NCBI GenBank assembly: GCA_016934095.1
Contig: JAFGTO010000276.1
Span: 1-35,013, forward strand
Direction of reading: 5' to 3'
Source of the DNA: Candidatus Glassbacteria bacterium
GTDB lineage: Bacteria; Gemmatimonadota; Glassbacteria; GWA2-58-10
Length of the DNA stretch: 35,013 nt
Below the pieces are notes generated by a model. That model had not been told where the DNA came from. It was given only the letters and a program-made list of their open reading frames with translations, and did no database searches. Numbering within the stretch: the stretch's first letter is position 1; every line of letters starts with the position of its first letter. Shown here in pieces: positions 10,134 to 35,013 of the stretch. The translations under genes were made by a program, and so were the position numbers.

Positions 10134-10134
10134 C

Positions 10135-11979: not shown

Positions 11980-12046
11980 CCTGGTCAACCGGTAAAATTT
12001 TATTCGCTGCCGTGCGCAATCCCCGCGGCTTGCCGCAAGGGGGTCT

Positions 12047-14275: not shown

Positions 14276-14379
14276 GCAGTGATTTCCCGGTTCTCGGTGA
14301 AGACACCCGGCCTGAAAACAAAACGCTGCTAGCGCTCTGCTTTCGTTTGCCTCAGCGAGCGACACAAGCCTGCCTTATA

Positions 14380-14535
14380 TTATTTCAAAGGCTGGCGGCT
14401 GTCAAGAAATGATCCGTCCACCGAGCGTTTCATCAAGTGCACAAACAACTTATCGTAATACCGGGACTTTTTCCTGTCGCCGAGAGCGGAATAAAGATGA
14501 ACGCAGGCCAGCAAAAAATTCGCATCGGGATTCAT
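14380..14535 (-). CDS. small hypothetical protein (51 aa), possibly the first gene of the ExeA-like operon
   Basis: ATG 14535 has AGGAG about 11 nt upstream. Translation is MNPDANFLLACVHLYSALGDRKKSRYYDKLFVHLMKRSVDGSFLDSRQPLK. It matches no recognisable family, so coding status is uncertain. Confidence 0.25.
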   Translation of the reverse strand: MNPDANFLLACVHLYSALGDRKKSRYYDKLFVHLMKRSVDGSFLDSRQPLK

Positions 14536-14808
14536 TTTAGTGCATCTCCTTTGCCTATTGGGGGCTACCTGCAAAAGAACAGGCAATCTTCATGCCATCA
14601 ATGGTTTGACTCTCACGACATGGCGCAGGCAATTATTCCTCAAGCTCCCGGGCTTTTTTGCTGTTCAATTTAATAACGAGCGCATTACCCTTGAGCCAAG
14701 CTGCGGGTAATCTTCAATCTTGTCTTCTCTATACGCGGGTTATATATTTACTTACAGGTTATCAAGTCCCGACTCGCTCACCGGGCTCATTGAAAAACGG
14801 GGTATTAA

Positions 14809-20997: not shown

Positions 20998-22806
20998 CTA
21001 CTTCAACAGGACCATTTTTCTGGTCGAGGTATACTTGTCGGAACTGAAGCGGTAGAAATATACCCCGGAACTCACCTGGCGCCCGTGGTTGTCGGTGCCA
21101 TCCCAATTAGCCGTGTAGAAGCCCGGTCCTTTCACATCTTTGTCCAGCGTCCTCACCAGCTTACCACGGATGTCGTAAACGTTCAGGCTGAACGAGACAA
21201 AACCGGCATCCTCGGGTACCTGGTAATTGATGGTAGTGGACGGGTTGAACGGATTGGGATGGTTCTGGGCCAGTGCGAAAGCCTTGGGCAATGAAGCGCC
21301 CGGGCCGAGACCCTCTCCGCTGAGCGGCACACGGTTGTCAATGGTGGCCACGCCGTCAATCAACTGCATCGACATGTAGCTGCCGTCGGAGTCGAGAACA
21401 TTTGCCTGCTTGATTAACAGGCTGACATCGACAGAGTTATCCTCTGTGATTACGCCTTCCCAGCCTTCGATATCGAAAACCAGGCTCATGATCTCACCGC
21501 TTCCGACTTCAATCACCTTGTCGATTGAAGAGGCGAACGCCACGATTTTGATATACTCTGTGGAATCGGCCACATTGACCTGCCAGTTAGCCATCCTGTC
21601 GCTCTGCATAACCCCATCGGCGTCCAGGGAAAGCTCTATGGCCTCATCAGCCGAGAGCTTGCAAATCTGCAACTCCATCACCGACACCGGCAGGCTGTTG
21701 GTCATCATGACAGGCAGGTGCAGCTGGCCGTCTACGATCATGGCGATACCGCTGGCCTCATCCGCCTCACCCGGCTGATGGGCACCGGCTTTGACGCCGA
21801 CAATCAAGCTGTCGCCGAAAAACACGTCGGGTGCCAAGGTACCGATGGCAGGCTGCTGGAGAGCTGTCAGCGGAGCTCCGGCGGCATCGCTCAACACCAC
21901 GTCGGCCAGGGCTATGGAGATCGGGTCTCCCGCAGTCAGCCCTGAGGCAGCATACTCCAGGGTGCAGAGGGTGCCGAGCGGCCCCATGGCCACTTTTCCG
22001 CCGGAAAACGTGACGGTCGCAGTGGTCATCCCGTCCGCTGTCTCGGTATCGCCGATCGTGAAGGCCATCCCACCGGCCCGCGAGCCGGCTTTCACGCTGG
22101 CAAGGCTCAGGCCTGCAGGGTACGATACCTTGAAGCTCCCCGAGGCGATCTCATCCTTGTTCAGCACGTTGATCGGCAGGCTCAGCTTGCCTCCGGTGCT
22201 GGGGATCTCGGTGATTTCCGGCAGCTCCAATGCATCGTACGCCGGGATATCGGCAATCACGATCGGGTCTGCAACAACCGCCGGGAGAGTCCCCAAGGCC
22301 GCACCGGTGAACGGATATGCCAGTAAAAGAACTCCCTCCTGGGGCTGGGTAGCCCGGGTCAGCGGATGACTGCCGAACTCCATATCCTCAGGGACCTGGA
22401 GCGAATAGGTTAGCAGCACCCCGGATTTGGAAGGAATGTCTCCGTCATCTACCAAATCATCGAGATTGAAGCTCAGCAGAGAAAGCTGCAGCCCGCTGGC
22501 ATCCAGTTTAACGATATTGGGCTTTAACCCCGCTTCATCCTGCAGAACCTCGCCATATCCTTCACCCCAGGTATACCACTCAGCCCCAACCGGTGTAACC
22601 TCTGCCGGAATTCCCTGCATAATGACAACCACCCCACCGACAGCTTCTGAGTTAATGTGCGCCTCGTAGGTTATGGTAAGCACACCACCCGGACTGACCG
22701 GTGTGGTCTTGACAAATATCGTATCCGGAGAGGCTTGTGCCGCCAGATAAGCGATGTTGAACAGCACCAGTACTATTCCTAAGAATAGTATCTTAATTAT
22801 TTTCAT
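20998..22806 (-). CDS. secreted protein with about three cohesin-like modules and a T9SS C-terminal sorting domain
   Basis: 602 aa. Signal peptide MKIIKILFLGIVLVLFNIAYLAAQA. C-terminal LPKAFALAQNHPNPFNPSTTINYQVP...NVYDIRGKLVRTL...WDGTDNHGRQVSSGVYFYRF...RKMVLLK matches the T9SS type A CTD (TIGR04183-like). The internal modules of about 140 aa are beta-rich and cohesin-like (for example SLPINVLNKDEIASGSFKVSYPAGLSLASV). Confidence 0.8.
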   Translation of the reverse strand: MKIIKILFLGIVLVLFNIAYLAAQASPDTIFVKTTPVSPGGVLTITYEAHINSEAVGGVVVIMQGIPAEVTPVGAEWYTWGEGYGEVLQDEAGLKPNIVKLDASGLQLSLLSFNLDDLVDDGDIPSKSGVLLTYSLQVPEDMEFGSHPLTRATQPQEGVLLLAYPFTGAALGTLPAVVADPIVIADIPAYDALELPEITEIPSTGGKLSLPINVLNKDEIASGSFKVSYPAGLSLASVKAGSRAGGMAFTIGDTETADGMTTATVTFSGGKVAMGPLGTLCTLEYAASGLTAGDPISIALADVVLSDAAGAPLTALQQPAIGTLAPDVFFGDSLIVGVKAGAHQPGEADEASGIAMIVDGQLHLPVMMTNSLPVSVMELQICKLSADEAIELSLDADGVMQSDRMANWQVNVADSTEYIKIVAFASSIDKVIEVGSGEIMSLVFDIEGWEGVITEDNSVDVSLLIKQANVLDSDGSYMSMQLIDGVATIDNRVPLSGEGLGPGASLPKAFALAQNHPNPFNPSTTINYQVPEDAGFVSFSLNVYDIRGKLVRTLDKDVKGPGFYTANWDGTDNHGRQVSSGVYFYRFSSDKYTSTRKMVLLK

Positions 22807-22849
22807 AAATTCCCCCTGATGAGCTTAGTTGAATGTGAAGCTGTTGGCT

Positions 22850-22876
22850 GGCGGGCTCCCGTAGCGGGAGCCCGCC
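22850..22876 (-). other. GC-rich 12-bp hairpin between two T9SS-cargo genes
   Basis: GGCGGGCTCCCG-tag-CGGGAGCCCGCC, starting 17 nt after the TGA of the 1382-aa gene. It has no U-tract, so it is not a classical intrinsic terminator. It may be an RNA stability or processing element. Confidence 0.4.
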
Positions 22877-22892
22877 GCCATTCGTCAGTTCC

Positions 22893-25800
22893 TCACTTAA
22901 GGATAACCATCTTCCTGACCGCCGAAAAATCGCCGGCTTTCATTCTGTAGAAATAAACACCGGAGGAAACAACCCTTCCGCCCGCATCACGACCGTCCCA
23001 ATTCACCGTGTATCTTCCGGCGTCCTTTAGCTCATCAACCAGGGTAACAACCTTCTGTCCACGGATATTGTAAACATCCAGAACAACCCTTAACGCACCG
23101 GCCGATTCAGGCAACTCATAGCTGATCGTGGTGGAAGGGTTGAACGGATTCGGGCTGTTCTGAGCCAGCATAAAGGCCTTGGGTAAAACCGCCGCTGCAC
23201 TCACCTTGGCCGTTTCACTTCCGTAGACTTTACCGGTCAGGTCAGCAACCTCTACCCGTTCAAGACTGAGCTTGGCTTCCTCGAAACTCGCTCCCTCGAA
23301 CAAGACCTGGAACAATTCCCCTTCCAGCTCGGCAGGCACAAAACCGCTCCCCATATTGATGACATCCACTACAAGCTCGCCATCCAGGAAGAACGGTTTG
23401 ATCATCGCCGTGCTCGGCAGGGAACGGCCCAACTTCACGTCAGCCACCTTGTAAGTATTGTCGTAGCTGAAAGTGAAGCGCGCCACAATTATCTCGAAAT
23501 TGCTGTCCAGTCTGACCAGAGCGGCTCCCTCAGGCACGTTAGCATCGGTCAGGTCCTGCGCCGAGGCCAGCATGCTGCTGCAGTCCACAGTCTGTTCCAG
23601 CAGGTAGCTGATCAGATCTGCCAGATCCTGCAGGGAAGGCGGCACCGTGGCTACCAGGTAGGCGTAGAGGTCGCGCACGTCAATTACACCATCGCCGTTT
23701 AGGTCCCGTGGGTCTCTGGCGGAAATCGTAATCGCGCCGTTAATCACCCCGACAGAGATGGTGTTCGCATCCGGGTCCGAGAGCGAGACCTCCGCAAGCT
23801 CGACCGGGATCACCTCGCCCGGCAGGGCATCCGCATAGACCGAGAAGGTAACCTTGAACAGCATTTTATCGGCGCCTGCGGCAATCGGGTTGGAGAAGGA
23901 GAAATCAACCAGGCTGACCGCAAGCACACCGCTGGTATTGGCCCCGGCTATTTCCACGCCGACCGGAGTCATACTGGCGGCATCCGCACCGAGAGCAGTT
24001 GCGGTAATCTGCAGCTTCTCCGGGTCGAACACCACCTGGAAGCTCGCCCCTGCCACATCGACCTGAGTGGTCGACAGCACATCCAGGATAGCGCTTCCGC
24101 CTTTGCTGGTCGTGGCGCTGGTAATCTTCACCACGCCCTCGGCCACTCCCAGTATACCGTCCATGGTATACACCGGGATGGAATTGGCATCCGCATCGGA
24201 GAGCGAGGCCTCATCCACCGGCAGGGTCAGCTCGTATTCCATACCCGGAGTCGCATCCTCCGGGATCATGAAAGTAACCACGAACAGGTCGGTAACCGCG
24301 CCGGCTGCGATCTGCTTGCTGAAACTGAAGTCCACCAGGGAAACCTTCAGCTCACCCGTGCTGTTGGCTTCCTCGAGATCCACCCCGACAGCGGTGAATT
24401 CGTCGGGTATCCCGGCGGCTTTCTCCGCCGCGGTTATCTGGACTTTAGTCTGGTCGAAAGCCAGGGTGAACCCTGCCCCGGCAACGTCTGCTTCATCGGA
24501 ATAGACCTGGATCGTTACGTCCGCTTCCATGCCGGGCATGTCGAAAGCATCGACCACCTTGAAATAGCTCTCCGCCACTACCGGGGCTACTGGCGTGGCA
24601 GTCACCATCGCAGCTTCGGACTTGTCTCCGTCGGTATCGTAGGCGTAGAATATATAGGTATAGGTAACCCCGTTTTCCACGTCGGTATCGGACAGCGACT
24701 CCGGCTGCTCGGCCATTCCCATGCCGTCCACCACCATCACCGAATCAGTGTCGCCTGCCGCCCGGCGGTAGGCCCTGACATAATCGATCACGGCATTGGT
24801 CTTGTCGGCAGGGTTGGTCCAGCTTATCTCGACCAGCTGGTCCCCGACTACCACGTCATCCTGGGAAACGACCACCTTGTCGGGATAAACAGTCGGCAAA
24901 GGCGGCAGAGGAGAGAAAGGACCGACCGTAGTCGCGCCCTTGGTGTTGCCTGAAACGTCCCAGGTCTGGAACGAATAGGAATACCCCTCTTCGGCATCCA
25001 GGTCGACATCGCTCCAGGTGCTGATCAACTCCCCGGATTCCTTGCTGTTGAACAGAGTATCGACCGCACCCGTTCCTGCCTCGGTCCTCACCAGGGTTAG
25101 CAGGTCGAGGTCCAGGTCTGTCGGGTTGTCCCAGGTCAAATCAATCCGGCCTACTCCGATAGTGGCCTCGATGTTTCTGACCGAATCGGGCGGAGTTACA
25201 TCGACCGCGACTATGGTGAAATAACCCTCATCCGGGCTGATAGTCTTATATTCAGGCACGAATTCGGCGTTCATCACGGTGGCTTCACCACTGGACTTGA
25301 TCGAGGCCTTGTCGCCGGCCGTCATCGCACCGGTGGCGGTAAGCTGCAGGCTCAACAACTGTCGGGCCGTACCGCCTGCGGTGATGCTGTTCTCCTTACC
25401 CGTGTCGAACATCCCTATCCTGATGCTGTCCGCATAGGTACTGACAGCCGTATCCTCAGGAGTGTCGGCTTCCCAGATATCACCGTTGAAAGTCAGCGAG
25501 CCGGCGACATACTCCAGCGAGTCCGAGTCGAACTCGATGAGCATGTCAAGGCCGGCAACCGCTGCCTTGTTGGATATCTTGATGATGACCCTCTGGGTGG
25601 ACCCTACTCCACCGCTGACATCCACGACTTCGAACTCGTAGGCGCCACGGACGAAAAACACACCCTTCTGTATGTCGGTCGGACTGACCGTAACGTACTG
25701 CGGGATGAATTCTTCGTCTACAATGGTAACTTCTCCGGTCGCATCGATACTGTCGTAGGCGGCTGTGGCATCCTCATTGACATGCAGGATGAACTCGAAG

Positions 25801-27041
25801 GCCAGCTTTTCCTCCGTGCCTGCCGCGATAGTACTTTCGCCGACCGAAGCGGCGCTCACCGTCAGAGAACCGTCTCCCGGGGTGATATTAGTTTCGACAT
25901 CAGAAGGATCGCCCGAGAAGATATCCGCCATAACATCGACGTCGGTCTCACTGACAGTGTACTGGTCCTCGTCGAAGGTCAATCCGACCTCGTAGCCTAC
26001 AATCGCATCCGCGTTCTTCAAGTAGACCCTTACCGTGTCCGAGCCTTCGGGGTTTGCAGTAGCGTCCCTGCTGATCCTCAGGCTGAACTTACCGACAATA
26101 TCTACGTTACCGTTAATAACACTGGGAGTGTTATAGACCGGCTCGAAAGTATCCGTAAGCGTGTTCACGGTCGGGTCTGTTATATCTAATGCATTAAATG
26201 GCCCGGCAGTTGCAGTAGCAGCTGTCTTCATGGAAATCTTCGCGATCCACTGGCTGACCGCCGAGACCGGTATAGAGGCTTCTTCCCAGGTATAGAGGAC
26301 GAGCTTGATCTTGCCGTCGGCTGCCTCGGAAGAGTCAACCTCGAACTCGGGGGTGCCGTTCTGCCAGATATCCGGGTTTATCTCGACGTCGTAGTTGAAT
26401 TCCACCTGGGTGGGAGTGTAAGAAAGGTAGAATTCGAGCCCGACAACGTCCTCCGCGTTTTTCATATATATCGGCACTTCGAACGACATCCCCAGGCTGG
26501 TCTCGACACTGTCCGCCTCGAGGATAAACTTGCTGAGGACATTCACCGCTCCGTCCGTCAGATCAGCCACCGTATTATAGACCGGCAGGAAATCCGTCGA
26601 CAGTCCCACGAAATCCGCCGTGGGGGAGATAACAACGTCTCCCGGTAAAAGTCCCTCAGGAATATTCATCTGGATCGTGAATAGTTCTTTCGGAGTACTT
26701 GTCTCCACCAGGGGTGATTCCTCGGCCATGGTGTAGAATACCACCTTGACCTGGCCGGGCGTCGTCGTATCCACCTCCGGTGCATCAGCGGTCCAAACCT
26801 CCGGGTTGTGCACTATGCTTCCCCACTCGTATCCCAACGAGTCGGCATTGAAGGAAAGCGTAATTTCAGCCCCCGGATAAACCGTGTCGGTAGTTACGTA
26901 CACTTTCACCATAACGCTGCTGCCCGAGAATCCCTCACTATCCTCCACAATCACAGCGTTAGCCCCGTACAGACTGCCTCCGGTTAACAATAAAAATAAA
27001 GCTAGCACTCCTGCCAGGCTTAGAAGCCTTTTAAGTTTCAT
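22893..27041 (-). CDS. scaffoldin-like surface protein: 4 cohesin-like modules, 2 FN3, 2 cohesin-like modules, dockerin-like segment, 1 cohesin-like module, T9SS C-terminal sorting domain
   Basis: 1382 aa. Signal peptide MKLKRLLSLAGVLALFLLLTGGSLYGA, with RBS GGGGAGG upstream. Repeated modules of about 140-150 aa carry the cohesin-like core V.V....V.G..F.L.FD...L (for example VIIKISNKAAVAGLDMLIEFDSDSLEYV and ILDVLSTTQVDVAGASFQVVFDPEKLQI). FN3-like units contain IDLTWDNP and VEISWTNP. DLNGDGVIDVRDLYAYL looks like a dockerin/EF-hand loop. CTD is LPKAFMLAQNSPNPFNPST...GVYFYRM...RKMVILK. Confidence 0.8.
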   Translation of the reverse strand: MKLKRLLSLAGVLALFLLLTGGSLYGANAVIVEDSEGFSGSSVMVKVYVTTDTVYPGAEITLSFNADSLGYEWGSIVHNPEVWTADAPEVDTTTPGQVKVVFYTMAEESPLVETSTPKELFTIQMNIPEGLLPGDVVISPTADFVGLSTDFLPVYNTVADLTDGAVNVLSKFILEADSVETSLGMSFEVPIYMKNAEDVVGLEFYLSYTPTQVEFNYDVEINPDIWQNGTPEFEVDSSEAADGKIKLVLYTWEEASIPVSAVSQWIAKISMKTAATATAGPFNALDITDPTVNTLTDTFEPVYNTPSVINGNVDIVGKFSLRISRDATANPEGSDTVRVYLKNADAIVGYEVGLTFDEDQYTVSETDVDVMADIFSGDPSDVETNITPGDGSLTVSAASVGESTIAAGTEEKLAFEFILHVNEDATAAYDSIDATGEVTIVDEEFIPQYVTVSPTDIQKGVFFVRGAYEFEVVDVSGGVGSTQRVIIKISNKAAVAGLDMLIEFDSDSLEYVAGSLTFNGDIWEADTPEDTAVSTYADSIRIGMFDTGKENSITAGGTARQLLSLQLTATGAMTAGDKASIKSSGEATVMNAEFVPEYKTISPDEGYFTIVAVDVTPPDSVRNIEATIGVGRIDLTWDNPTDLDLDLLTLVRTEAGTGAVDTLFNSKESGELISTWSDVDLDAEEGYSYSFQTWDVSGNTKGATTVGPFSPLPPLPTVYPDKVVVSQDDVVVGDQLVEISWTNPADKTNAVIDYVRAYRRAAGDTDSVMVVDGMGMAEQPESLSDTDVENGVTYTYIFYAYDTDGDKSEAAMVTATPVAPVVAESYFKVVDAFDMPGMEADVTIQVYSDEADVAGAGFTLAFDQTKVQITAAEKAAGIPDEFTAVGVDLEEANSTGELKVSLVDFSFSKQIAAGAVTDLFVVTFMIPEDATPGMEYELTLPVDEASLSDADANSIPVYTMDGILGVAEGVVKITSATTSKGGSAILDVLSTTQVDVAGASFQVVFDPEKLQITATALGADAASMTPVGVEIAGANTSGVLAVSLVDFSFSNPIAAGADKMLFKVTFSVYADALPGEVIPVELAEVSLSDPDANTISVGVINGAITISARDPRDLNGDGVIDVRDLYAYLVATVPPSLQDLADLISYLLEQTVDCSSMLASAQDLTDANVPEGAALVRLDSNFEIIVARFTFSYDNTYKVADVKLGRSLPSTAMIKPFFLDGELVVDVINMGSGFVPAELEGELFQVLFEGASFEEAKLSLERVEVADLTGKVYGSETAKVSAAAVLPKAFMLAQNSPNPFNPSTTISYELPESAGALRVVLDVYNIRGQKVVTLVDELKDAGRYTVNWDGRDAGGRVVSSGVYFYRMKAGDFSAVRKMVILK
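23724..24572 (-). repeat. Tandem duplicated cohesin-like modules (coding repeat) inside the 1382-aa gene
   Basis: Module A (24144-24572) and module B (23724-24143) align in register. Compare DVAGAGFTLAFDQTKVQITA with DVAGASFQVVFDPEKLQITA, VSLVDFSFSKQIAAGA with VSLVDFSFSNPIAAGA, and SLSDADANSIPV with SLSDPDANTISV. Confidence 0.75.
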
Positions 27042-27171
27042 ATCTAAACCTCCCCGTCTCCTGACGAGCCGATATAAGAGGTAACTTCAACATATGCTTT
27101 TATCCCGTGAGTAAAGGTTACAATTATGTGATCAATATACGGAAAACGGACAATAATGATATTTCTTTGCT

Positions 27172-27210
27172 TAAAAAGAGTGCCGAATTCATGGAAGAAT
27201 TCGGCACTCT
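27172..27210 (-). terminator. Rho-independent terminator of the 1639/1687-aa T9SS gene
   Basis: Minus strand reads AGAGTGCCGAATTC-ttccat-GAATTCGGCACTCT followed by TTTTTAA. It begins 20 nt after the TAA stop at 27230-27232. Confidence 0.85.
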
Positions 27211-27229
27211 TCCCAGCATTGTCAACTCC

Positions 27230-30200
27230 TTACTTCAGAATGACCATCTTCCGGGTCTTGCTGAACTCACCGGCCTGAATCCGGTAGAAGTAGACACCGG
27301 AAGCCACGAAACGGCCATTATTGTCCTTACCGTCCCACTCGATCTTGTAGGAGCCTTCATCCATCGTCTCACTGGCCAGGGTGCGTACGAGCTGGCCGCG
27401 GATGTTGTAGACATTGAGACGGACGAACGCTTCCTTACCTTCCGGGATATCGAAAGCAATAGTCGTCGACGGGTTGAACGGGTTCGGATAGTTCTGACCG
27501 AGTGCAAAAGCCTTCGGCAGGATGGCTTTCGGAGACAGAGCCTCGCCGTTGATCTCCGCGGCGACATCCGGCTCAAACCCTGCTTCGAGCAGAGAAATCT
27601 CGCCTTCGCCGTCGAACTTCTCACCGACAGCCGAGACCGGGATGGTCAGGATCGCGCCGTTACCGGTGGAGATCGGACGGCCCTTGATGTTGATGACCAC
27701 TATGCTGTAAATACCTTCGGTTTCGTTGTTGGCGAAGTGGACATCAACTCCCTCGAGCCGCTGCGCGGCCTTTACCTCACCGAAGACGAACTTGTCGGTA
27801 TCGTACTTCACCCGCAGGGCGGCAAAGTTCAGGCTGCCCTGGTTCTCCAGGTTAATGGAGAGAGTCGCGGTGGCCTTGTCAATCGCTTCGTAAGCCATCG
27901 ACAGCTTGGCGGAACGATCCTGCTCTTCAGCAGCCGAGGCGAGCAAGGTGGTGGATCCACCTCTCCAGAGCGCCAGGACGGCCGTAATATCGGCAGGCTC
28001 GAACACCCAGTTGGCATCGCGGTCCAGGCCCAGGTAATCGATGAGCCTGTAGGTGATGGCCGGCGGGTCTTTCAGGAACAGGTAGACCGTACGGATCAGG
28101 TCGCCGACCTTGACTGCGTCAGCGGTAAGATCCTGCTTACCGGCTTTCGGCGAGACCGTGTAGGTGCCACCCATATCGTCCGTGGTATCGGTCCAGGTCA
28201 TGGTGGTGTCCAGGCCGACATCGATGACATCGATATCGTAAACCACCGTGGTCCCGAGCTTCTGCGCCGGGATAAGACCCGTAAACCTGACCGAGTCCTC
28301 AGTGGCCGTGGACACTTCCAGGGTGTCGACCACTGCGGTATCGCTGGTGGCCGCAGCGGCGTAAGTGCCGTCCTCCTGCAGCTCGAGCGCCGTAGTGATC
28401 GCCCGCAGGTAAACTATCTTCACGTACTCGGCATCACTGACGTCCGCCGTGATAGTCACACCGACGAGGGTATCCTGCACCAGCGCCGCCGGCGGGCTCT
28501 TGAAGTTGACAACCGAGGGACCTGTTATGACAACAGGGCTGGTGGAAACATTGAACTCCACCGCAGTGATCCCGGTGTTGGTCGGGACATCCACCTCCAC
28601 CGTGATCTCGTCGCTGGTTCCGGCTGTGAGCTTGGCCATGGCCTTGCCCTCGGCATTGGTTACCACCGACAGAGTATCGTTAGGCGTGGCCACGGTAACA
28701 CCCATGCTGTCCCTGAAAGTACCCGAACCGGAGGATACCACGTAACGCACCACGGAATCCGGCAACACGTTGCCGAAGGTGTCTTTCAGCAGTACCGTGA
28801 GAGACGAATCCACCACGGCCCCGGTGTTGGCTTTCTGCACCCCGAGGGGCTCGACAATAGTCAGCGAGCCGATAGTGGTGGGCTTCACTGTGACCAGCAC
28901 CGAGTCGCGTATGGTGGACTTGGCCGAATCGATCACCACCAGGTAATAGTCGGCAGCATACTTGGGTGTGATAAAGATGCTGTCGACGAGCGCGTACTTG
29001 GTCCCCGATGTCGCTAGCGTGTCATAGCTAACCCACAGCGAGTCGTACATGTGGCCGCCGTGGCCGGCTGTAGTACGCTGACGGACCGCGGTGTGCGCAC
29101 CGGTAAGGGTGGTGTCCGCGGACTTGAAGATCAAGCCCCTGTTGCCGGAGCCCATGTTCTTCACGTTACCGTGCCTGTCGCCGAGGAACACCTTGTACAT
29201 GTACTCCTGACCGGCAATCAGGGTGTCCTTGGTCTGGGTGATGCCGCTGCTGAAGTACTTGGGTACGGCAAGCGTGGTGCCGCCGGGGTTCTTCAGCTTG
29301 AGACCGCCGAAAGAGGCGTCTCCAGGCGCCCAGGCTGCATTGTTATGAGCCCAGACCGGGCTGGCCTTGGTGGCCACCTGCACCCCGTAGGAGGTGTCGC
29401 TCTTGGTCGGGTTGACAAAACCCTTGAGCCTGATATAGTAGTAGTCGTTTTCGTTCGCCTTGACCGAGACGACCACACCGATCGAGTCCTCCAAGCCTTC
29501 GCCGCCCTGCCCGATCGCCACGGCGTCGTAGTAGTTGACGTTGTCAACCGAGCATTCGACATCTTCCTTGGTGATACCCACAGGGATACCGGCTCCGTCC
29601 GGCAGGCTCATGAACTTGATGTAAGCCAGGCTGTCGGACCGGTTAGGTTCGATGATATTGTCGGTGGGTACCTTGAATTTCACCACCAGGCCGTTGTTCA
29701 GCACTGCTCCGGCCGTGTCCGCCGCGCTCGTAAAGGAGAAAGCGCTGACATTAGTCACGCTGTCGATGAGCGTGGGGCTCAGCAGGGTGAACAGCCCGAG
29801 GTCCGTAGACACGTCGGCCGGGGCCGCACCGTATTTGCCGGCCAGTCTGCCCGGCTTGTGGATCATGGTGAGGCGGTAGTTCACGCCCTGGTACTTCAGG
29901 CGCAGGCCCATGTCGTTGGCGCCCGAGCCGCCGAGGTTCAGGCGGCTGGAGTCCGCGCGCTCGAAGTCATAGTCATAGATAAAGGACGGGTCGGCCTTGG
30001 CGTTGGCATCGGCAATGTTGCCGCGCCCGGCGCTGCCGGTTAGGGTCATCGAGTCGATCTTGATCGAGTCGTTGGTGGTAGCACTAGCGTAATTGCCATA
30101 GCCCAGCGGGTCCACGCCATCGATCTTGAAGTTGATGGCGTTCAACACGCCGGCGGTGCTGGCTACGCTGACACCGTCCAGGAAGCCTGCATCGTAAAGC

Positions 30201-32149
30201 AGGTCCATGTTGGAAACATAGTTGTACGCCGTATCCAGTGCGAAGATCGGCAGCTCCACCGGGATACGCGCACCCTTGACCACCTCTCCGTCATCGATGG
30301 CCGTCTGCAGGTTGGCGGAAAACGTCGAGAGCTCCCAGGCGACCGGCGGGCTGGGCTCGACCGTAATCAGCGCGCTGTCGCGGACATCCGGGGTGCTCTG
30401 TGCGTAGACCACTACCCGGATCGCCTCGTTGTTGGGATGCGAGGTGGTGCCGTAATAGCGCACACTGCTGAAAGTCAGCACACCGCTGGAGCTCGTGGTG
30501 GCGTCGGCACCCTTGATCGTGTCGGCGACGAAAATATCCGTGCCGCTGGGATCCAGGAAATGGGTGGCCGGCCGATCGAAATCGCCGATGGACGTGCCGT
30601 CGTGGAGGATGCCGGTCATGGTCGAGTTCTGTGTCCAGCCGGTAATCTCCCCGTAGTCGTCTGAGTCGCCGTCATCGTCGTAAGTCAGGGTCAGGTAGCG
30701 GAGCTCGAAAACCAGCTTGTCGGTCTCCGTCCCGACATCCTTGGCGGCGAACAAGTCGCCGAATTTGTCCTTGATCGTCAGCGTGGCTGCGCCGGTGGTG
30801 CTCAGCGGCAGGCCGTTGTAATACGGGTTCTGGGTACCCAGGGCCGTTACTTCCGGCATGGTCAGCACGATCTCGCCGATCAGGTCGCTGACATCGGATT
30901 CGTAGAGCACTCTCCGGATGGTCACCGTGCGGTTGGCAGGCACACCGAGCAGGGTGCCCGCAGACTGCCTGGAGGCATCTTTGGAACCCAGGTTAATGGT
31001 AATGGAAATCGTATCGCCCTCTTCCACGGCGGTGGCCGTGGTCAGCTTGACGCCGAGGGTGTAAGGATAAGGCGATGCAGTGCGTGGAGTGGTGTTGCCC
31101 AGGAACAGCGGCACGTTGATCAGGTCATCGTTTTCCTTGGCCCTGACCGCCCAGGTATTGGTGCCGTTAATATCCACCTGCTGGTAGAGTTTACCAGTCG
31201 CGGCACCGCCGGCAGTACTGTCAAGCAAGGCGTTGCTGCTGAAAGACGAATGAAAAGCTGCGCCCGAGCCCTGGAACCTGATCTTGTTCCCGGCGCCCAG
31301 GGTATCCAGCAGCGCCTGCGGGACTGAGGCTACACCGTTGTTGACCAGGCGCGAGGTGAAAGTTCCCACGCTGCTGCCCACCGAGATGATCAGCGAGTCG
31401 TCGGTGTCGTCGAAGAAGTCCCGGACGAAGTTGCCGAAGCGGTCGACCACCATGATCGAGTCGCCGCCCGGCCAGTACTGCCCGCTGACGAAGCCCCCGA
31501 TGGAGGAGTTGTAATAGACACTGTCGGCGGCGTCGTTGGAAATGTAGAAGCTCGTGCTGTCCTGGAAGGTCGTGGTCAGGTCGCTGTGCTTGAATTTGAC
31601 CAGCATGTTGCCCTGGTCGTCCGTACCGTTGTAGCTGTACCTGTTTATCCCGGTGACGGAGCTACCATGGTAGAGGCCGCTCACGAATTCCACGTCATAC
31701 CTGGCGTACGAATTCCAGTCGCGGTGGGCGGTGATCACGATAACAGGCGGTGTGGAGGCACTGTAGCTGGACCCCAGCGGGTTGCCTGTCACCTGGATAT
31801 TGGCGGCGGGAACATAGTTGGTGACAATGTTCTCCGCAGAAAAGGTATAAGTGACCAGGATACCTTCATCTTCGAGCTCTTCCTGGTCGGTAACCGTCCC
31901 CTCGGGGAAAGTAAACCTATAAGTCGTAACGTCCTTGGCCTGGCTGCCCGCTTCCCAGGTAAATTTCCATAACGCCGGATGCCCTACCGTGTCTTCCCTG
32001 GCTGTAGTTGTAGTCCTGTAAGGAGCACCAGTCAGGTCGTTCTTCAATAGGAAGTCCACCGTAGTGGCATCGGAAAGCTGAGCAAAGAGGTTGGTACTGA
32101 ATAGTCCCAGTAACATAACGAGTGTACTGGCCAGAAAACGAGATTTCAT
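27230..32149 (-). CDS. giant surface protein: long unassigned N-terminal region, Ig-like domains, degenerate dockerin-like segment, cohesin-like module, T9SS C-terminal sorting domain
   Basis: Start chosen at ATG 32149 (MKSRFLASTLVMLLGLFSTNLFAQ, a signal peptide, with G-rich RBS GAAGGGGGG upstream). Alternatives are ATG 32224 (GGGGGGA 6 nt upstream) and the track start at 32293. An Ig-like Big_1-type stretch reads LTVLLKDTFGNVLPDSVVRYVV...VVTNAEGKAMAKLTAG. A cohesin-like module reads ATLSINLENQGSLNFAALRVKYDTDKFVF. CTD is LPKAFALGQNYPNPFNPST...GVYFYRI...RKMVILK. Confidence 0.8.
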   Translation of the reverse strand: MKSRFLASTLVMLLGLFSTNLFAQLSDATTVDFLLKNDLTGAPYRTTTTAREDTVGHPALWKFTWEAGSQAKDVTTYRFTFPEGTVTDQEELEDEGILVTYTFSAENIVTNYVPAANIQVTGNPLGSSYSASTPPVIVITAHRDWNSYARYDVEFVSGLYHGSSVTGINRYSYNGTDDQGNMLVKFKHSDLTTTFQDSTSFYISNDAADSVYYNSSIGGFVSGQYWPGGDSIMVVDRFGNFVRDFFDDTDDSLIISVGSSVGTFTSRLVNNGVASVPQALLDTLGAGNKIRFQGSGAAFHSSFSSNALLDSTAGGAATGKLYQQVDINGTNTWAVRAKENDDLINVPLFLGNTTPRTASPYPYTLGVKLTTATAVEEGDTISITINLGSKDASRQSAGTLLGVPANRTVTIRRVLYESDVSDLIGEIVLTMPEVTALGTQNPYYNGLPLSTTGAATLTIKDKFGDLFAAKDVGTETDKLVFELRYLTLTYDDDGDSDDYGEITGWTQNSTMTGILHDGTSIGDFDRPATHFLDPSGTDIFVADTIKGADATTSSSGVLTFSSVRYYGTTSHPNNEAIRVVVYAQSTPDVRDSALITVEPSPPVAWELSTFSANLQTAIDDGEVVKGARIPVELPIFALDTAYNYVSNMDLLYDAGFLDGVSVASTAGVLNAINFKIDGVDPLGYGNYASATTNDSIKIDSMTLTGSAGRGNIADANAKADPSFIYDYDFERADSSRLNLGGSGANDMGLRLKYQGVNYRLTMIHKPGRLAGKYGAAPADVSTDLGLFTLLSPTLIDSVTNVSAFSFTSAADTAGAVLNNGLVVKFKVPTDNIIEPNRSDSLAYIKFMSLPDGAGIPVGITKEDVECSVDNVNYYDAVAIGQGGEGLEDSIGVVVSVKANENDYYYIRLKGFVNPTKSDTSYGVQVATKASPVWAHNNAAWAPGDASFGGLKLKNPGGTTLAVPKYFSSGITQTKDTLIAGQEYMYKVFLGDRHGNVKNMGSGNRGLIFKSADTTLTGAHTAVRQRTTAGHGGHMYDSLWVSYDTLATSGTKYALVDSIFITPKYAADYYLVVIDSAKSTIRDSVLVTVKPTTIGSLTIVEPLGVQKANTGAVVDSSLTVLLKDTFGNVLPDSVVRYVVSSGSGTFRDSMGVTVATPNDTLSVVTNAEGKAMAKLTAGTSDEITVEVDVPTNTGITAVEFNVSTSPVVITGPSVVNFKSPPAALVQDTLVGVTITADVSDAEYVKIVYLRAITTALELQEDGTYAAAATSDTAVVDTLEVSTATEDSVRFTGLIPAQKLGTTVVYDIDVIDVGLDTTMTWTDTTDDMGGTYTVSPKAGKQDLTADAVKVGDLIRTVYLFLKDPPAITYRLIDYLGLDRDANWVFEPADITAVLALWRGGSTTLLASAAEEQDRSAKLSMAYEAIDKATATLSINLENQGSLNFAALRVKYDTDKFVFGEVKAAQRLEGVDVHFANNETEGIYSIVVINIKGRPISTGNGAILTIPVSAVGEKFDGEGEISLLEAGFEPDVAAEINGEALSPKAILPKAFALGQNYPNPFNPSTTIAFDIPEGKEAFVRLNVYNIRGQLVRTLASETMDEGSYKIEWDGKDNNGRFVASGVYFYRIQAGEFSKTRKMVILK

Positions 32150-32442
32150 AAGAGTTTTCCCCCTTCGAGAGTTAAAAGAAAGAACCGTTTTGCTGGTGGG
32201 CAAAGATGGTTGGCTTTGCTTCATAGACATTCCCCCCGTGGCTGGAATTGAAAGTTTACCCTGTGTCAAACCTGAATTAATTCTTACGAACATCTAAAGA
32301 AATATTGTATAAAATTCTAAACGCATTCCTCCTTTTCTCCGCCGTTTAGAAAAAAAGCCGGCAGAATGTAATTGCAGAAACACCAAGAGGTTAGGAATTG
32401 TCAGCGTATACATCGAAAATCAGGAAATCCCAAATTGGTTTA

Positions 32443-32471
32443 ATTATATACTCCTTTCAAAAATTTGTCAA
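32443..32471 (-). promoter_or_regulatory. Consensus sigma-70-type promoter (TTGACA-N17-TATAAT) upstream of the giant T9SS gene
   Basis: Minus strand reads TTCTTGACAAAAATTCTTGACAAATTTTTGAAAGGAGTATATAATTA. The -35 lies at 32466-32471, the spacer is exactly 17 nt, and the -10 lies at 32443-32448. A second copy of TTCTTGACAAA sits 13 bp upstream (32477-32487). Confidence 0.55.
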
Positions 32472-32485
32472 GAATTTTTGTCAAG

Positions 32486-32518
32486 AAAAAAAGCGCAAAA
32501 GGTTTTCCGAACCCTTGC
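32486..32518 (-). terminator. Probable intrinsic terminator after the dockerin-protein gene
   Basis: Minus strand reads GCAAGG-gttcggaaaa-CCTT(tt)GC followed by GCTTTTTTT (a 7-T run), about 50 nt after the TGA at 32568-32570. The stem is short and bulged. Confidence 0.4.
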
Positions 32519-32567
32519 CTGCTGCAAATCTCACAGATTTTCAGCACTTCATAATTGGTTATCAATC

Positions 32568-34220
32568 TCAGCCTGCCAAAATCCCCAAGAGGGCCAGCAG
32601 GTCGAAAATATTGGTCGACCCGTCCCGGTTGACATCCGATCCCAGGGACGGCTCCCTGTCGCCGGAAAGCACTCCCAGCAGGTTCAGCAGGTCGAAGATG
32701 TTGATCGTACCGCTCTCGTCCACGTCGCCAGGCACTGCAGTGTACTCCACCACCACCAGCTCGTAAGCTTCCGCCGGCGCTCCGGACGGCAACGACACCT
32801 CGTTCATGTTGTCCCGGGCCACCACGTAATACCTGATCGAGCCGCCCTCGCTCAACGGGCCGGCCACCTGGGCCGTGAACAGGTTGCCCGATGACCTGGT
32901 CAGCGCCGCCTCCTCGAATCCTCCCCCATCCACGGAATAATACAGCATCGCATCCGTGCTGCTCACCACCTCGTCATCCGTGATGTTCATCTTGAAAACG
33001 TACGGACCCTCCAGGTCGTAGGTCGTATCCACACCGGTCGATACCACCGTGAAATCCCCGGCCACCACTTTCAGGTCCGTGATCACCGGCGCCACCACGT
33101 CCACCACCGCCCCGATGGTGTAATCTACTATCGAATAATCCGTTACCGTAAACGTCGCCTCGTTCGCCTCAGTGTCCACCGCCACACCCTCCATCATTAC
33201 CCAGGTGCCCAGGCCCGGGTCATAGCCGAACACCGATAGCCGCGCCTCGGTAAAGTTCGGCACCTCGGTCGGCAGGTCCTCGTCAAAATAGCTCAGAGTA
33301 ACCTCGACATCCGCACCATCCACCGGCTCCTGCGAGCTCAGGTCAAGGCCCCAGCCGCGGCGGATACCATAGAACTGGCTGGTCAGCTCATCGCCAGCCA
33401 GGTAGGTGTACACACCCTTTTCGGCCTTGACCTTGCCGTCCCCGGCCGAGGCCAGCTCCGGCAGCCCGGCATTCTCCAAGAAGCCGGACTTCTCCAGGAA
33501 CTTGAACATCCAGCTCAGGGCCTGGCCGGAGTTGTTTTTGAACCTGGTTTTCAGCCCGAAACCGGGGGGCAGGAAATCATCTTCATCGCCGCTGGCCAGC
33601 TCGGGTGTCTCGACACTGTCGCGGCGCACTACCGCGATTTCCACCCTGACAGAATCGCTCACCCCGCCGTTGTCATCGACAGCCCAGAAGAGGAAGACCG
33701 CAGAGGAGATCTGCTCGTCCTCCGGCAGCAGGGCGGTGTCGAAGACGAATACGTTACCGTCGCGGATGCTGGCCGGGGGATTGTCGCCCATGGTCAGGAA
33801 GGGGACCCGGCCCGCGGTGAACACATCGACCGAGTCCTCGTCGGGATCGCGGTAGTTCACTGCAAAAGTTAAAATATCGCCCTCCACCACGCTCTGGTCA
33901 TCGATCCTGAAAACCACCGGCGGCAGGTTGACCTCGGCCACCGTAACCTGCACTGGCTTGTTCACCGCCTGGCCGCCGTCGCTGACAACGACCTCGAAAC
34001 TGTGGGTCCCGGACTGGGTATGGTCGGGAGCGAAACTGATCATCTTCCTCGCTCCGCTAAAATTCGCCCTGGCGTTTTTCGGCAGGCCGCTGGTAGAATA
34101 ACTCAAAGGGTCTCCGCCCGGGTCCTGGGCCGAAAGCTCTATCTCGAGCAGCCCGCCTTCGTTCACTCCCAGCTTCAGGGTGTCAGGGCCGGTAAGCTGC
34201 CCGCTAAAAGCAGGCTCCAC
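32568..34220 (-). CDS. cadherin/He_PIG-like repeat protein with C-terminal type-I-like dockerin (the 3' part of a frame interrupted by TAG)
   Basis: 550 aa as drawn from GTG 34220, with no signal peptide. Repeats of the type LSAQDPGGDPLSYSTSGLP continue the upstream ORF. The C-terminus GDVDESGTINIFDLLNLLGVL-(10 aa)-SDVNRDGSTNIFDLLALLGIL forms two Ca-loop/helix segments, the dockerin duplication. Confidence 0.7.
   Translation of the reverse strand: MEPAFSGQLTGPDTLKLGVNEGGLLEIELSAQDPGGDPLSYSTSGLPKNARANFSGARKMISFAPDHTQSGTHSFEVVVSDGGQAVNKPVQVTVAEVNLPPVVFRIDDQSVVEGDILTFAVNYRDPDEDSVDVFTAGRVPFLTMGDNPPASIRDGNVFVFDTALLPEDEQISSAVFLFWAVDDNGGVSDSVRVEIAVVRRDSVETPELASGDEDDFLPPGFGLKTRFKNNSGQALSWMFKFLEKSGFLENAGLPELASAGDGKVKAEKGVYTYLAGDELTSQFYGIRRGWGLDLSSQEPVDGADVEVTLSYFDEDLPTEVPNFTEARLSVFGYDPGLGTWVMMEGVAVDTEANEATFTVTDYSIVDYTIGAVVDVVAPVITDLKVVAGDFTVVSTGVDTTYDLEGPYVFKMNITDDEVVSSTDAMLYYSVDGGGFEEAALTRSSGNLFTAQVAGPLSEGGSIRYYVVARDNMNEVSLPSGAPAEAYELVVVEYTAVPGDVDESGTINIFDLLNLLGVLSGDREPSLGSDVNRDGSTNIFDLLALLGILAG
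32571..32735 (-). other. Dockerin module (two-segment, EF-hand-like) at the extreme C-terminus
   Basis: Both segments carry the D-V-(D/N)-x-(S/D)-G-x-x-N-x-x-D-L-L pattern. At DNA level the two segments (about 32598-32636 and 32685-32723) are visibly related, with a period of about 87 nt. Confidence 0.7.
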
Positions 34221-34226
34221 ATCCGT

Positions 34227-35013
34227 CTAAGTAACTTCCAGCTTGAAGCTGCGGCTGACACTCAGCGGGTTCCCGGAGTTATCATCCGTGGCCGTTACCC
34301 GGACATTATAGATCCCGGCGTCCAGGTAGCCCGGGGTAAAATCGATTGTGGCGGTAACCGGGTTCCCCTGGTCGTAGTTAAGCTCCGCGCCTTCCGGCAA
34401 GCCGGAGGCCGAGACCGAAAGCTGGTCGCTCTCATCCGGGTCCGAGGCGATAATCTCGAAACTCAGGCTCGAGCCTTCCGCCACCGACTGGTCCGCGACA
34501 GTCTCGATCTCGGGAGGACTGTTGACATCGCCGACCGTGACCACTACCCGGACGCTGTCCACGCCGCCTTCCTTGTCGTCCGAGGCGGTAAAGAGCACGA
34601 CATAGTTGCCGCTCTGGTCCTGTGCCGGGGTCCAGTCGAAAAGTCCCGAGGCTTCAGTGAAATCGGCCCCTTCCGGCAGGCCGTAGGCGGCATAGCTCAC
34701 CTCGTCTTCGTCCGGGTCCGTGGCGGCGACAGTAAACTGGAGGCTGGCCCCCTCGTCCACCGACTGGTTTTCTGCGACCAGGTCCGGCTTGCGGTTGACA
34801 TCCAGCACAGTGATGGTAACCGTCTCCGAAACATCGTTCGCGGAGGCGTCGAAAGCGTGGAAAGTTACCTCGTACTCGCCGGCCTGGTCGTAATCCGGAC
34901 GCCATTTCAGCAGGCCGCGGCCGAAAACCTCCGCCCCCTCGGGCAGGTTGTCGGCATCGAAGCTCACGTGCTGGCCGCTGGCGTCAGTCGCCTGGAGGTT
35001 GACCTTGAGCAGC
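34227..35013 (-). CDS. cadherin/He_PIG-like repeat protein, internal fragment (5' end outside the window), ending at an in-frame TAG
   Basis: The frame is open to the window edge (LLKVNLQATDASGQHVSFDADNLPEGAEVF...). Repeats of about 95 aa read xATDPDxDxxSxxAxGLPEGAxF...FxWTPxxDQxGxYxVxFTAxD...VxVTVxDVNxxP. Confidence 0.75.
   Translation of the reverse strand, partial: LLKVNLQATDASGQHVSFDADNLPEGAEVFGRGLLKWRPDYDQAGEYEVTFHAFDASANDVSETVTITVLDVNRKPDLVAENQSVDEGASLQFTVAATDPDEDEVSYAAYGLPEGADFTEASGLFDWTPAQDQSGNYVVLFTASDDKEGGVDSVRVVVTVGDVNSPPEIETVADQSVAEGSSLSFEIIASDPDESDQLSVSASGLPEGAELNYDQGNPVTATIDFTPGYLDAGIYNVRVTATDDNSGNPLSVSRSFKLEVT

Follow-up and report, generated by a model that had tools for sequence, protein, structure and literature searches.

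The DNA analyzed here is the entire 35,013-bp metagenomic contig of a Candidatus Glassbacteria bacterium, hereafter the window, and Glassbacteria is a class of Gemmatimonadota in GTDB (PMC11316326). From position 20998 to the contig end, the window contains four minus-strand genes, which encode three cohesin-bearing proteins of 602, 1382, and 1639 amino acids (aa) that end in a type IX secretion system (T9SS) sorting domain, and an adhesin that ends in a dockerin (Table 1). The 1382-aa protein, predicted to have seven cohesins, is referred to here as the scaffoldin. A previous sequence-only reading had counted four or five genes in this region. The count of four stood and that of five did not, because the two open reading frames (ORFs) at the dockerin gene, 34227-34967 and 32568-34220, share one frame, and the orthologues run through without interruption; thus, the 246-aa and 550-aa ORFs were ruled out as separate genes. 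The features described in that reading were found where it had placed them and scored well above chance, and a profile scan with Cohesin, Dockerin_1, TIGR04183, and the He_PIG/cadherin-like families gave the result it had anticipated.

The scaffoldin was analyzed with the Pfam Cohesin profile (PF00963), which has a gathering score of 24.1 bits. The protein matched with 110.8 bits (E 8.1e-32) over five stretches, the best of which spanned residues 470-592, in agreement with the claim that the modules of about 140 aa are cohesins and not another immunoglobulin (Ig)-like family. When isolated, modules 5 (residues 815-950) and 6 (residues 950-1085) gave 24.8 and 25.5 bits with the same profile; at the positions of these two modules the orthologues have none or one, and the alignment shows gaps. 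The cohesin-type beta-sandwich fold was checked by structure for module 7, and the other weak modules were linked by profiles. The AlphaFold2 model of module 7, built with nine orthologues, had a predicted local distance difference test (pLDDT) score mostly of 75-92, and Foldseek against the PDB gave cohesins for all of its top ~20 hits (E 1.4e-4 to 2e-2; target-normalised TM-score up to 0.60, for 2jh2), among them also 2vo8 (E 1.4e-4) and 2xdh. The hhalign comparison of cohesin 7 with cohesin 6 gave 95%. The scaffoldin is thus modelled with seven cohesins, six detectable by sequence plus module 7, because AlphaFold2 and Foldseek placed the latter among cohesins. The orthologues vary, with five to seven cohesins and zero to two fn3-like modules, and such variation in module number is typical of scaffoldins. 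No carbohydrate-binding module (CBM) was found on the scaffoldin, and no CBM, SLH, or LPXTG match was found in any of the locus proteins with Pfam and NCBIfam.

Between its sixth and seventh cohesins, the scaffoldin has an EF-hand/dockerin-like segment, in which residues D1113, D1117, G1118, D1124, L1125, and Y1128, and with them the Ca-ligand positions, are invariant in nine orthologues. This segment gave weak matches to EF-hand_5 and Dockerin_1, and three helices were predicted with pLDDT 73-89. This segment opens a C-terminal cassette, in which a cohesin and then the sorting domain follow. The cassette was also observed, in a degenerate version, in the 1639-aa protein (segment at 27899-28141), whose orthologues likewise have an EF-hand/dockerin-like helical segment directly before the last cohesin. 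Similar cassettes were present in T9SS proteins of metagenome-assembled genomes (MAGs) labelled Zixibacteria and Ignavibacteria (relatives L014, L036, L041, and L063). Intramolecular capping and intermolecular linking are both possibilities for the role of this cassette.

The only cohesin of the 1639-aa protein matched the Pfam profile with 21.5 bits (E 2.9e-4), slightly under the gathering score, and hhalign connected it at 84-90% to scaffoldin cohesin 7 and to module B of the 602-aa protein. Module B itself gave 16.1 bits, also below the gathering score, and a profile of six orthologues matched solved cohesins, with 2xdh_A at the top (E 3e-5), followed by 5nrm, 5nrk, and 2vn5. The hhalign comparison gave 95% for B versus C and 91% for B versus scaffoldin cohesin 6. 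Modules A and C showed no Pfam Cohesin match. Module A looks alike by eye, but hhalign linked it to the others at no more than 2.3%, and it was left unassigned. Therefore, of the three, seven, and one cohesins proposed for the 602-aa protein, the scaffoldin, and the 1639-aa protein, the last two figures were borne out, and the first had to be lowered to two cohesins (B and C) preceded by an N-terminal module A with no cohesin link. An exact-sequence look-up of the 602-aa protein found it on no other contig.

For the N-terminal ~1,300 aa of the 1639-aa protein, no Pfam, NCBIfam, or PDB sequence match above threshold was obtained. When nine pieces of 190 aa were compared with Pfam at E <= 10, only Big_1, with 22.5 bits versus 34.9, and a partial MurT_C match were retrieved, and the latter was treated as spurious, as it covered 47 of 110 positions. 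An AlphaFold2 model of residues 72-1271 made with three sequences had a mean pLDDT of 32.7 and was discarded. The family is very narrow, as two full-length homologues plus P0030 were found among 5.8 billion clustered proteins. In PDB sequence and profile searches with the 1382-aa and 1639-aa proteins, only the sorting-domain region was matched, to FlgD and PorU. No Pfam or NCBIfam enzyme family was detected in the four locus proteins. The earlier claim of no recognisable enzymes thus holds as none being detectable, and an enzyme-free locus is not proven by this, given the ~1,300 aa of the 1639-aa protein with no match.

Next, the C-termini were analyzed with the T9SS type A sorting-domain model TIGR04183, which has a cutoff of 23 bits. 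All three cohesin-bearing proteins scored above it at the extreme C-terminus, as the sequence-only reading had claimed, with 33.2, 36.5, and 40.6 bits for the 602-, 1382-, and 1639-aa proteins, respectively, and the matches ended two or three residues from the C-terminus. Moreover, Pfam FlgD_ig was above its gathering score in all three, while Por_Secre_tail (PF18962) was below in two of three, and the sorting domains also matched the region of the PorU C-terminal domain (NF033707, PDB 6za2). At the other end, signal peptides could be read from the sequence in all complete genes: MKIIKILFLGIVLVLFNIAYLAA before Q in the 602-aa protein, MKLKRLLSLAGVLALFLLLTGGSLYG before A in the 1382-aa protein, and MKSRFLASTLVMLLGLFSTNLFA before Q in the 1639-aa protein. 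Glutamine was observed at position +1 after the predicted signal-peptidase site in the 602-aa protein (LAA/QASP; 22735-22806), in the 1639-aa protein (LFA/QLSD; 32078-32149), and in the adhesin of L087 (AFA/QTTSG; L087:362-430), and the scaffoldin has alanine at this position. This pattern agrees with the 'Bacteroidetes Q-rule' (PMC11285876).

The fourth gene encodes the adhesin, of which the window contains the C-terminal part. Pfam identified repeats of He_PIG (E 1.6e-28), Big_9 (E 5.8e-18), Cadherin_4, and PKD_4, and these are followed by a middle region with no family and by the C-terminal dockerin, in line with the proposal of a cadherin-like adhesin as cargo. Dockerin_1 (PF00404; gathering score of 22.9) matched residues 497-544 of the 550-aa ORF with 28.0 bits (E 2.5e-6), and this ORF has no T9SS domain; the previous claim that this gene ends in a two-segment dockerin with no T9SS tail was thus upheld, with no TIGR04183 match. 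The orthologous and related dockerins scored 23-40 bits. A type I dockerin is defined by two segments of ~22 residues, each with a loop D-x-[DN]-x-[DSN]-G-x-[IV/T]-[ND]-x-x-D and a helix, and the adhesin C-terminus has this organization: as read from the sequence, there are two 12-residue calcium-loop motifs, each followed by a helix, i.e., DVDESGTINIFD-LLNLLGVL and DVNRDGSTNIFD-LLALLGIL. The segments inside the 1382-aa and 1639-aa proteins fall outside this definition, as they have a single loop or a degenerate one. Since the two halves of the adhesin dockerin are nearly identical, the module fits a dual binding mode, which we put forward from the sequence.

The full-length adhesin orthologues have 1468-1570 aa, and the similarity to the copy in the window is 54-66% identity. 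The full-length adhesins L007, L087, P0081, P0084, and P0157 start with a signal peptide and a cohesin; the latter gave 24.0 bits with Pfam in L007, and a local hidden Markov model found the same module in P0081, P0084, and P0157. Because a cohesin opens these orthologues and a dockerin closes them, the adhesin would be both plug and socket. The in-frame TAG of the window coincides with a codon for aspartic acid in L001 and L002 (Table 1). In L084, an in-frame TGA (L084:5215-5217) was observed at a codon that is for glycine in the window, and this leaves the dockerin as a separate 63-aa ORF (P0050). Noise in the assembly, a variant within the population, pseudogenisation, or read-through could account for these stops, which occur in two independent assemblies.

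Gene order was then compared with that of relatives. The window shares the order 1639-like gene, scaffoldin, 602-like gene with L001, L002, L005, L009, L085, L086, and L087, and the synteny thus extends to at least seven related metagenomic lineages. What is observed directly at this locus is the identity of the domains, the order of the genes, and their conservation. The gene upstream of this block is visible in five lineages, and in five out of five it ends in a dockerin, has no sorting domain, and lies directly before the cohesin-rich sorting-domain genes. The window, L001, L002, and L087 have the giant adhesin at this place. In L086 the place is taken by another protein, which carries three cohesins, ends in a dockerin, and again has no sorting domain. 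The adjacency of the dockerin gene and the cohesin genes in all five visible lineages is the strongest indirect argument that the dockerin and the locus cohesins work together. Downstream, where the locus extends, genes for YtxH, DUF948, NAD synthase, thioredoxin, and thymidylate kinase were found, with a GAF-PilB/GspE ATPase in most.

All full-length scaffoldin relatives came from MAGs with the label Candidatus Glassbacteria or 'uncultured Gemmatimonadales', apart from two evident mislabels. The latter are the operon-bearing MAGs DATKXY010000097.1 (L002/L007, 'archaeon') and QMLQ01000307.1 (L006, 'Deltaproteobacteria bacterium'), and the presence of T9SS sorting domains and the synteny with Glassbacteria contigs suggest that these taxonomic labels are wrong. 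The arrangement of a cohesin adjoining a T9SS sorting domain was also present in MAG loci labelled Zixibacteria, Ignavibacteria, Zhuqueibacter, and others, from several phyla of the Fibrobacterota-Chlorobiota-Bacteroidota (FCB) superphylum.

The 62-aa dockerin was used in an exhaustive search of a library of 1.84 billion proteins, which yielded 456 clusters at E <= 1e-3. Among 50 proteins with a single C-terminal copy, the families included Cohesin (16), Big_9 (15), He_PIG (14), Peptidase_S8 (3), and Rhodanese (2), and no glycoside hydrolase was in the top 25 families of this limited sample, which is not a genome census. Small proteins of 240-380 aa were recurrent (P0058, P0059, P0072, P0075, P0076, P0078, P0092, P0102, P0108, P0131, P0153, P0164, and P0190) that consist solely of a signal peptide, one cohesin or two, and this kind of dockerin at the C-terminus, and these could be adaptors or chain-forming units. 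The Glassbacteria locus L044 encodes a Beta_helix protein with a Dockerin_1 match of 40 bits and its own sorting domain. In an 'uncultured Gemmatimonadales' MAG, L016:314-2668 encodes an MtrC/MtrF-like multihaem cytochrome with several CxxCH motifs (PF22113, E 1e-9), a dockerin-like segment of 20 bits, slightly under the cutoff, and a T9SS sorting domain. This gene hints that surface-displayed electron-transfer proteins may be wired into the same module system.

Collectively, we interpret this region, with moderate confidence, as a conserved non-enzymatic surface-assembly locus, in which T9SS-anchored cohesins display a dockerin-tagged adhesin. We infer the cohesin-dockerin binding, the T9SS export, the covalent anchoring, and the adhesive role from sequence. 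The three proteins with one, seven, and two or three cohesin modules would leave the cytoplasm via the Sec pathway, and their C-terminal type A sorting domains would then carry them across the outer membrane through T9SS, to be fixed on the surface by analogy with Porphyromonas and Tannerella. In favour of such a route, T9SS has been reported as possibly present in Gemmatimonadetes and other FCB phyla (PMC11285876). The dockerin of the giant Ig-repeat adhesin would plug, non-covalently and in a Ca2+-dependent manner, into the displayed cohesins. Since the full-length adhesin orthologues start with a cohesin, the docked adhesin would offer a new socket, and layers or chains could build up. Dockerin proteins from other parts of the genome may dock on these cohesins as well. 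Because the locus encodes no recognisable enzyme, what it builds is most likely a coat with an adhesive or structural role on the cell surface, and not a degradative complex.

Several observations weigh against this interpretation. T9SS machinery genes (SprA/Sov, PorK/L/M/N, PorU, PorV, and PorZ) were not found in the 35-kb window, and a sample of eight large ORFs from MAG loci of relatives did not include PorU. The adhesin has no sorting domain, and the model does not explain how it crosses the outer membrane. The in-frame TAG means that this adhesin copy may not yield a full-length, dockerin-bearing product, and in L084 the adhesin gene is elsewhere in the genome, away from the cohesin genes. 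The ~1,300 aa of the 1639-aa protein could hide an activity. Finally, relatives encode enzyme-like dockerin proteins, and the scaffold may therefore not be purely adhesive.

Cohesin-dockerin pairs are textbook parts of the Gram-positive cellulosome and widely used protein-assembly tools. A 2025 cellulosome review did not mention natural Gram-negative systems, and two comparative papers on Gemmatimonadota did not mention cohesin, dockerin, or T9SS. The previous reading had presented Gram-positive cellulosomes and scattered non-cellulosomal modules as the established knowledge, which was incomplete, since a T9SS-anchored scaffoldin had already been proposed in silico for Cloacimonadota (PMC8542988). 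Williams et al. (2021) described in Ca. Stygibacter a cellulosome-like complex with a T9SS-anchored scaffoldin and dockerin-tagged cargo (PMC8542988). Like the organism studied here, it is an FCB diderm known only from MAGs, with a non-catalytic, tandem-cohesin scaffoldin whose T9SS C-terminal domain was proposed to fix it to the own cell surface, and with signal-peptide proteins that have C-terminal dockerins (PMC8542988). In contrast to this locus, where no CBM and no enzyme were found, the 3,755-aa scaffoldin of Ca. Stygibacter has CBM2/CBM3, and the cargo includes glycoside hydrolases (GH18 and GH57) and S8/C25 peptidases (PMC8542988). Furthermore, here there are three separately anchored cohesin proteins and an Ig-repeat adhesin cargo with its own cohesin, and the phylum is Gemmatimonadota (class Glassbacteria). 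The concept of a T9SS-anchored scaffoldin is thus not new, and the adhesin cargo and the self-linking modules predicted from the sequence would be the new part.

Other systems share parts of this organization. Clostridium (Acetivibrio) thermocellum also has a multi-cohesin scaffoldin, a dockerin with two calcium repeats, and differently sized cohesin anchor proteins encoded side by side (SdbA, OlpB, and Orf2p), but it relies on SLH anchoring on a Gram-positive wall, a CBM3 in the scaffoldin, a type I/type II hierarchy, and dozens of carbohydrate-active enzyme (CAZyme) clients, none of which were found here. Of the features that define a cellulosome, the multi-cohesin scaffoldin is present in this locus, and both the CAZyme clients and the CBM with SLH or sortase anchoring are missing; on these grounds, the locus should be filed as a non-cellulosomal cohesin-dockerin system. 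The non-cellulosomal toxin/glycosidase complexes of Clostridium perfringens (2vo8, 2jh2, and 2w1n) are the best structural matches of scaffoldin cohesin 7 and provide an example of pairing outside cellulose degradation; however, there, the modules are on secreted Firmicute glycoside hydrolases, one or two per protein, with no multi-cohesin scaffold and no outer-membrane anchoring. In the T9SS-anchored surface coats of Porphyromonas gingivalis (gingipains/A-LPS) and Tannerella forsythia (S-layer proteins TfsA/TfsB), the proteins begin with a signal peptide and end in an Ig-like type A sorting domain, as those of this locus do, and a dense outer-membrane protein layer is the expected outcome. 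Nonetheless, these cargoes have no cohesin or dockerin, and Bacteroidota are the only group in which machinery and anchoring have been demonstrated.

In function, the closest experimental analogue would be the ScaE-CttA pair of Ruminococcus flavefaciens, in which an adhesin that is not an enzyme is bound, via its dockerin, by a cohesin protein anchored at the cell surface, with an Ig-like module directly before the dockerin. This organism is Gram-positive and uses sortase anchoring to peptidoglycan; CttA binds cellulose and is part of a true cellulosome with many enzyme clients. Both cases have in common the use of cohesin-dockerin pairing for adhesion and not for catalysis, but here the predicted anchor is a T9SS sorting domain, and the adhesin has He_PIG/cadherin-like repeats.

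Other explanations were weighed against the proposed surface assembly. The scaffoldin could mainly recruit dockerin-tagged enzymes encoded elsewhere in the genome, such as peptidases or beta-helix lyase-like proteins, with the adhesin as one client, e.g., a substrate-binding arm as proposed for Ca. Stygibacter, so that the product would be a degradative, cellulosome-like complex. Seven cohesins are more than one adhesin needs, there is the precedent of GH18, GH57, and peptidase cargo on a T9SS-anchored scaffoldin (PMC8542988), and enzyme-like dockerin proteins were found in relatives (Beta_helix in L044 and Peptidase_S8 in three of the 50). We consider this unlikely, although it keeps some weight, as the scaffoldin has no CBM and the locus has no CAZyme, Ig-repeat and cohesin proteins dominate the 50 sampled dockerin proteins, whose top 25 families include no glycoside hydrolase, and the partner kept in the operon is in every case a non-enzymatic protein with cohesin and dockerin. 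In addition, the enzyme-like Glassbacteria examples have their own sorting domains and, because of this, need no scaffold for anchoring. An elaboration of the surface-assembly model, which we see as distinctly unlikely, is that adhesins are chained head-to-tail from the ten T9SS-anchored cohesins into a self-extending polymer, a branched coat of Ig-repeat fibrils held only by cohesin-dockerin links; as a second idea, the adhesin, which has no sorting domain itself, could cross the outer membrane docked in the periplasm to a sorting-domain cohesin protein, hitch-hiking through T9SS. The EF-hand-cohesin-sorting cassette would be part of the same self-linking logic.

It is also conceivable that these modules do not pair at all, with the cohesin-fold modules acting only as Ig-like spacers or ligand-binding domains in three independent T9SS surface proteins, the dockerin as a stabilising Ca2+-binding tail or one that binds the cell wall or polysaccharide, and the adjacency reflecting no more than shared regulation. 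Cohesin and dockerin modules are indeed widespread outside cellulosomes, and several modules of this locus are too divergent for Pfam. Nevertheless, this is quite improbable in our view: the five informative loci combine the cohesin-rich sorting-domain genes with a dockerin-terminated gene that has no sorting domain, even when another protein with cohesin and dockerin replaces the adhesin, both calcium loops and the duplicated NIFDLL helices of the dockerin are intact and conserved, and the recurrent small proteins with signal peptide, cohesin, and dockerin would make little sense if the modules did not bind each other. The stop at 34227-34229, in place of the aspartic acid of the orthologues, and the TGA directly before the dockerin in the second assembly, L084, would be expected if the adhesin were a pseudogene and the assembly no longer formed in this organism. 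Such decay appears very improbable, because the frame has no other interruption over the 2.4 kb, on either side of the stop, and is highly similar to the orthologues (54-66% identity), the three cohesin genes are intact, the complete L087 orthologue has no internal stop, and single-base errors and minority variants are frequent in metagenome assemblies.

If the proposed display of an adhesin on T9SS-anchored cohesins is true, an uncultured diderm lineage uses cohesin-dockerin connectors on its outer membrane via T9SS and displays adhesins instead of enzymes, and the role of this module pair widens from enzyme scaffolding to the building of a surface coat. It would also give ten new cohesins and a matching dockerin as reagents, possibly orthogonal to existing pairs, lend further weight to the view that cargo of the T9SS type is common among FCB phyla beyond Bacteroidota, and raise the question of how a dockerin protein with no sorting domain exits the periplasm.

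Table 1. Positions of the genes, modules, and signals of the cohesin-dockerin locus and of the neighbouring block in the window.
Feature	Position	Strand	Description
602-aa T9SS substrate gene	20998-22806	-	Signal peptide, module A (25-195), cohesin B (196-335), cohesin-like C (345-505), sorting domain (517-602)
1382-aa scaffoldin gene	22893-27041	-	Signal peptide, four cohesins, two fn3-like modules, two cohesins, EF-hand/dockerin-like segment, seventh cohesin (modelled), sorting domain
Sorting domain of scaffoldin	22896-23153	-	TIGR04183
Scaffoldin cohesin 7 (modelled)	23172-23549	-	Residues ~1165-1290, adjoining the sorting domain; no Pfam match
EF-hand/dockerin-like segment of scaffoldin	23562-23714	-	DLNGDGVIDVRDLYAYL plus two more helices
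Scaffoldin cohesins 5 and 6	23772-24584	-	Residues ~820-950 and 955-1090
Scaffoldin cohesins 1-4	25242-26981	-	Residues 21-157, 160-305, 312-451, and 456-600 (phmmer self-search); in all orthologues
1639-aa T9SS substrate gene	27230-32149	-	Signal peptide, ~1,300 aa lineage-specific, degenerate dockerin-like helical segment, one cohesin, sorting domain
Sorting domain of 1639-aa protein	27233-27490	-	TIGR04183; FlgD_ig E 1.4e-13
Cohesin of 1639-aa protein	27494-27901	-	ORF residues ~1465-1600, adjoining the sorting domain
Sigma-70 consensus TTGACA-17-TATAAT	32443-32471	-	12/12 match, in the 418-nt gap between the adhesin and 1639-aa genes, after the T-run behind the adhesin stop
Adhesin (dockerin) gene, 3' 2.4 kb	32568-35012	-	5' part lost at the contig end; Ig repeats, C-terminal dockerin, no T9SS domain
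Two-segment dockerin	32571-32732	-	Last 54 adhesin residues, GDVDESGTINIFDLLNLL ... SDVNRDGSTNIFDLLALL; conserved in orthologues
In-frame TAG	34227-34229	-	Splits the adhesin into 246-aa and 550-aa ORFs; Asp at this codon in L001 and L002
TPR protein	8916-10133	-	Neighbouring block
TPR/FGE-sulfatase protein	10135-12123	-	Neighbouring block
ExeA-like AAA_22 ATPase with zinc ribbons	12047-14365	-	158 bits to the PEP-CTERM-associated ATPase model, under its cutoff
GAF-MshEN-PilB/GspE-type secretion ATPase	14809-16992	+	Neighbouring block

The gene boundaries in Table 1 include two revised starts. The longest ORF of the 1639-aa gene reaches 32293, and the start was set at M49 (32149) because the signal peptide and the gene call P0030 of the database point to it, as does an AGGGGG ribosome-binding site located 8 nt upstream of this ATG. 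For the scaffoldin, the database call P0001 (1339 aa) begins 43 codons late (26910-27041, minus strand), dropping the signal peptide; the true start is placed at 27041, as the N-terminus MKLKRLLSL is invariant in nine orthologues. The perfect sigma-70 consensus between the adhesin and 1639-aa genes suggests that the three cohesin genes may form a separate transcription unit.

No hit was obtained when the window was scanned for Rfam families and tRNA genes. Two long ORFs were observed antisense to the 1639-aa gene, 27107-29017 (plus strand, 636 aa) and 29051-30043 (plus strand, 330 aa); both are Arg/Gly-rich, show no sign of a real gene, and are most likely by-products of the GC-rich coding sequence on the opposite strand. 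The ORF at 10135-12123 was considered as a GldK/PorK candidate and rejected, as it scored 62 bits versus a cutoff of 350. The neighbouring block, 8916-16992, could conceivably take part in the export of the adhesin, which has no sorting domain. The block, with its PilB/GspE-type and ExeA-like ATPases, is syntenic in most relatives whose locus extends that far, and in the window the TPR/FGE-sulfatase and TPR proteins lie beside these ATPases.

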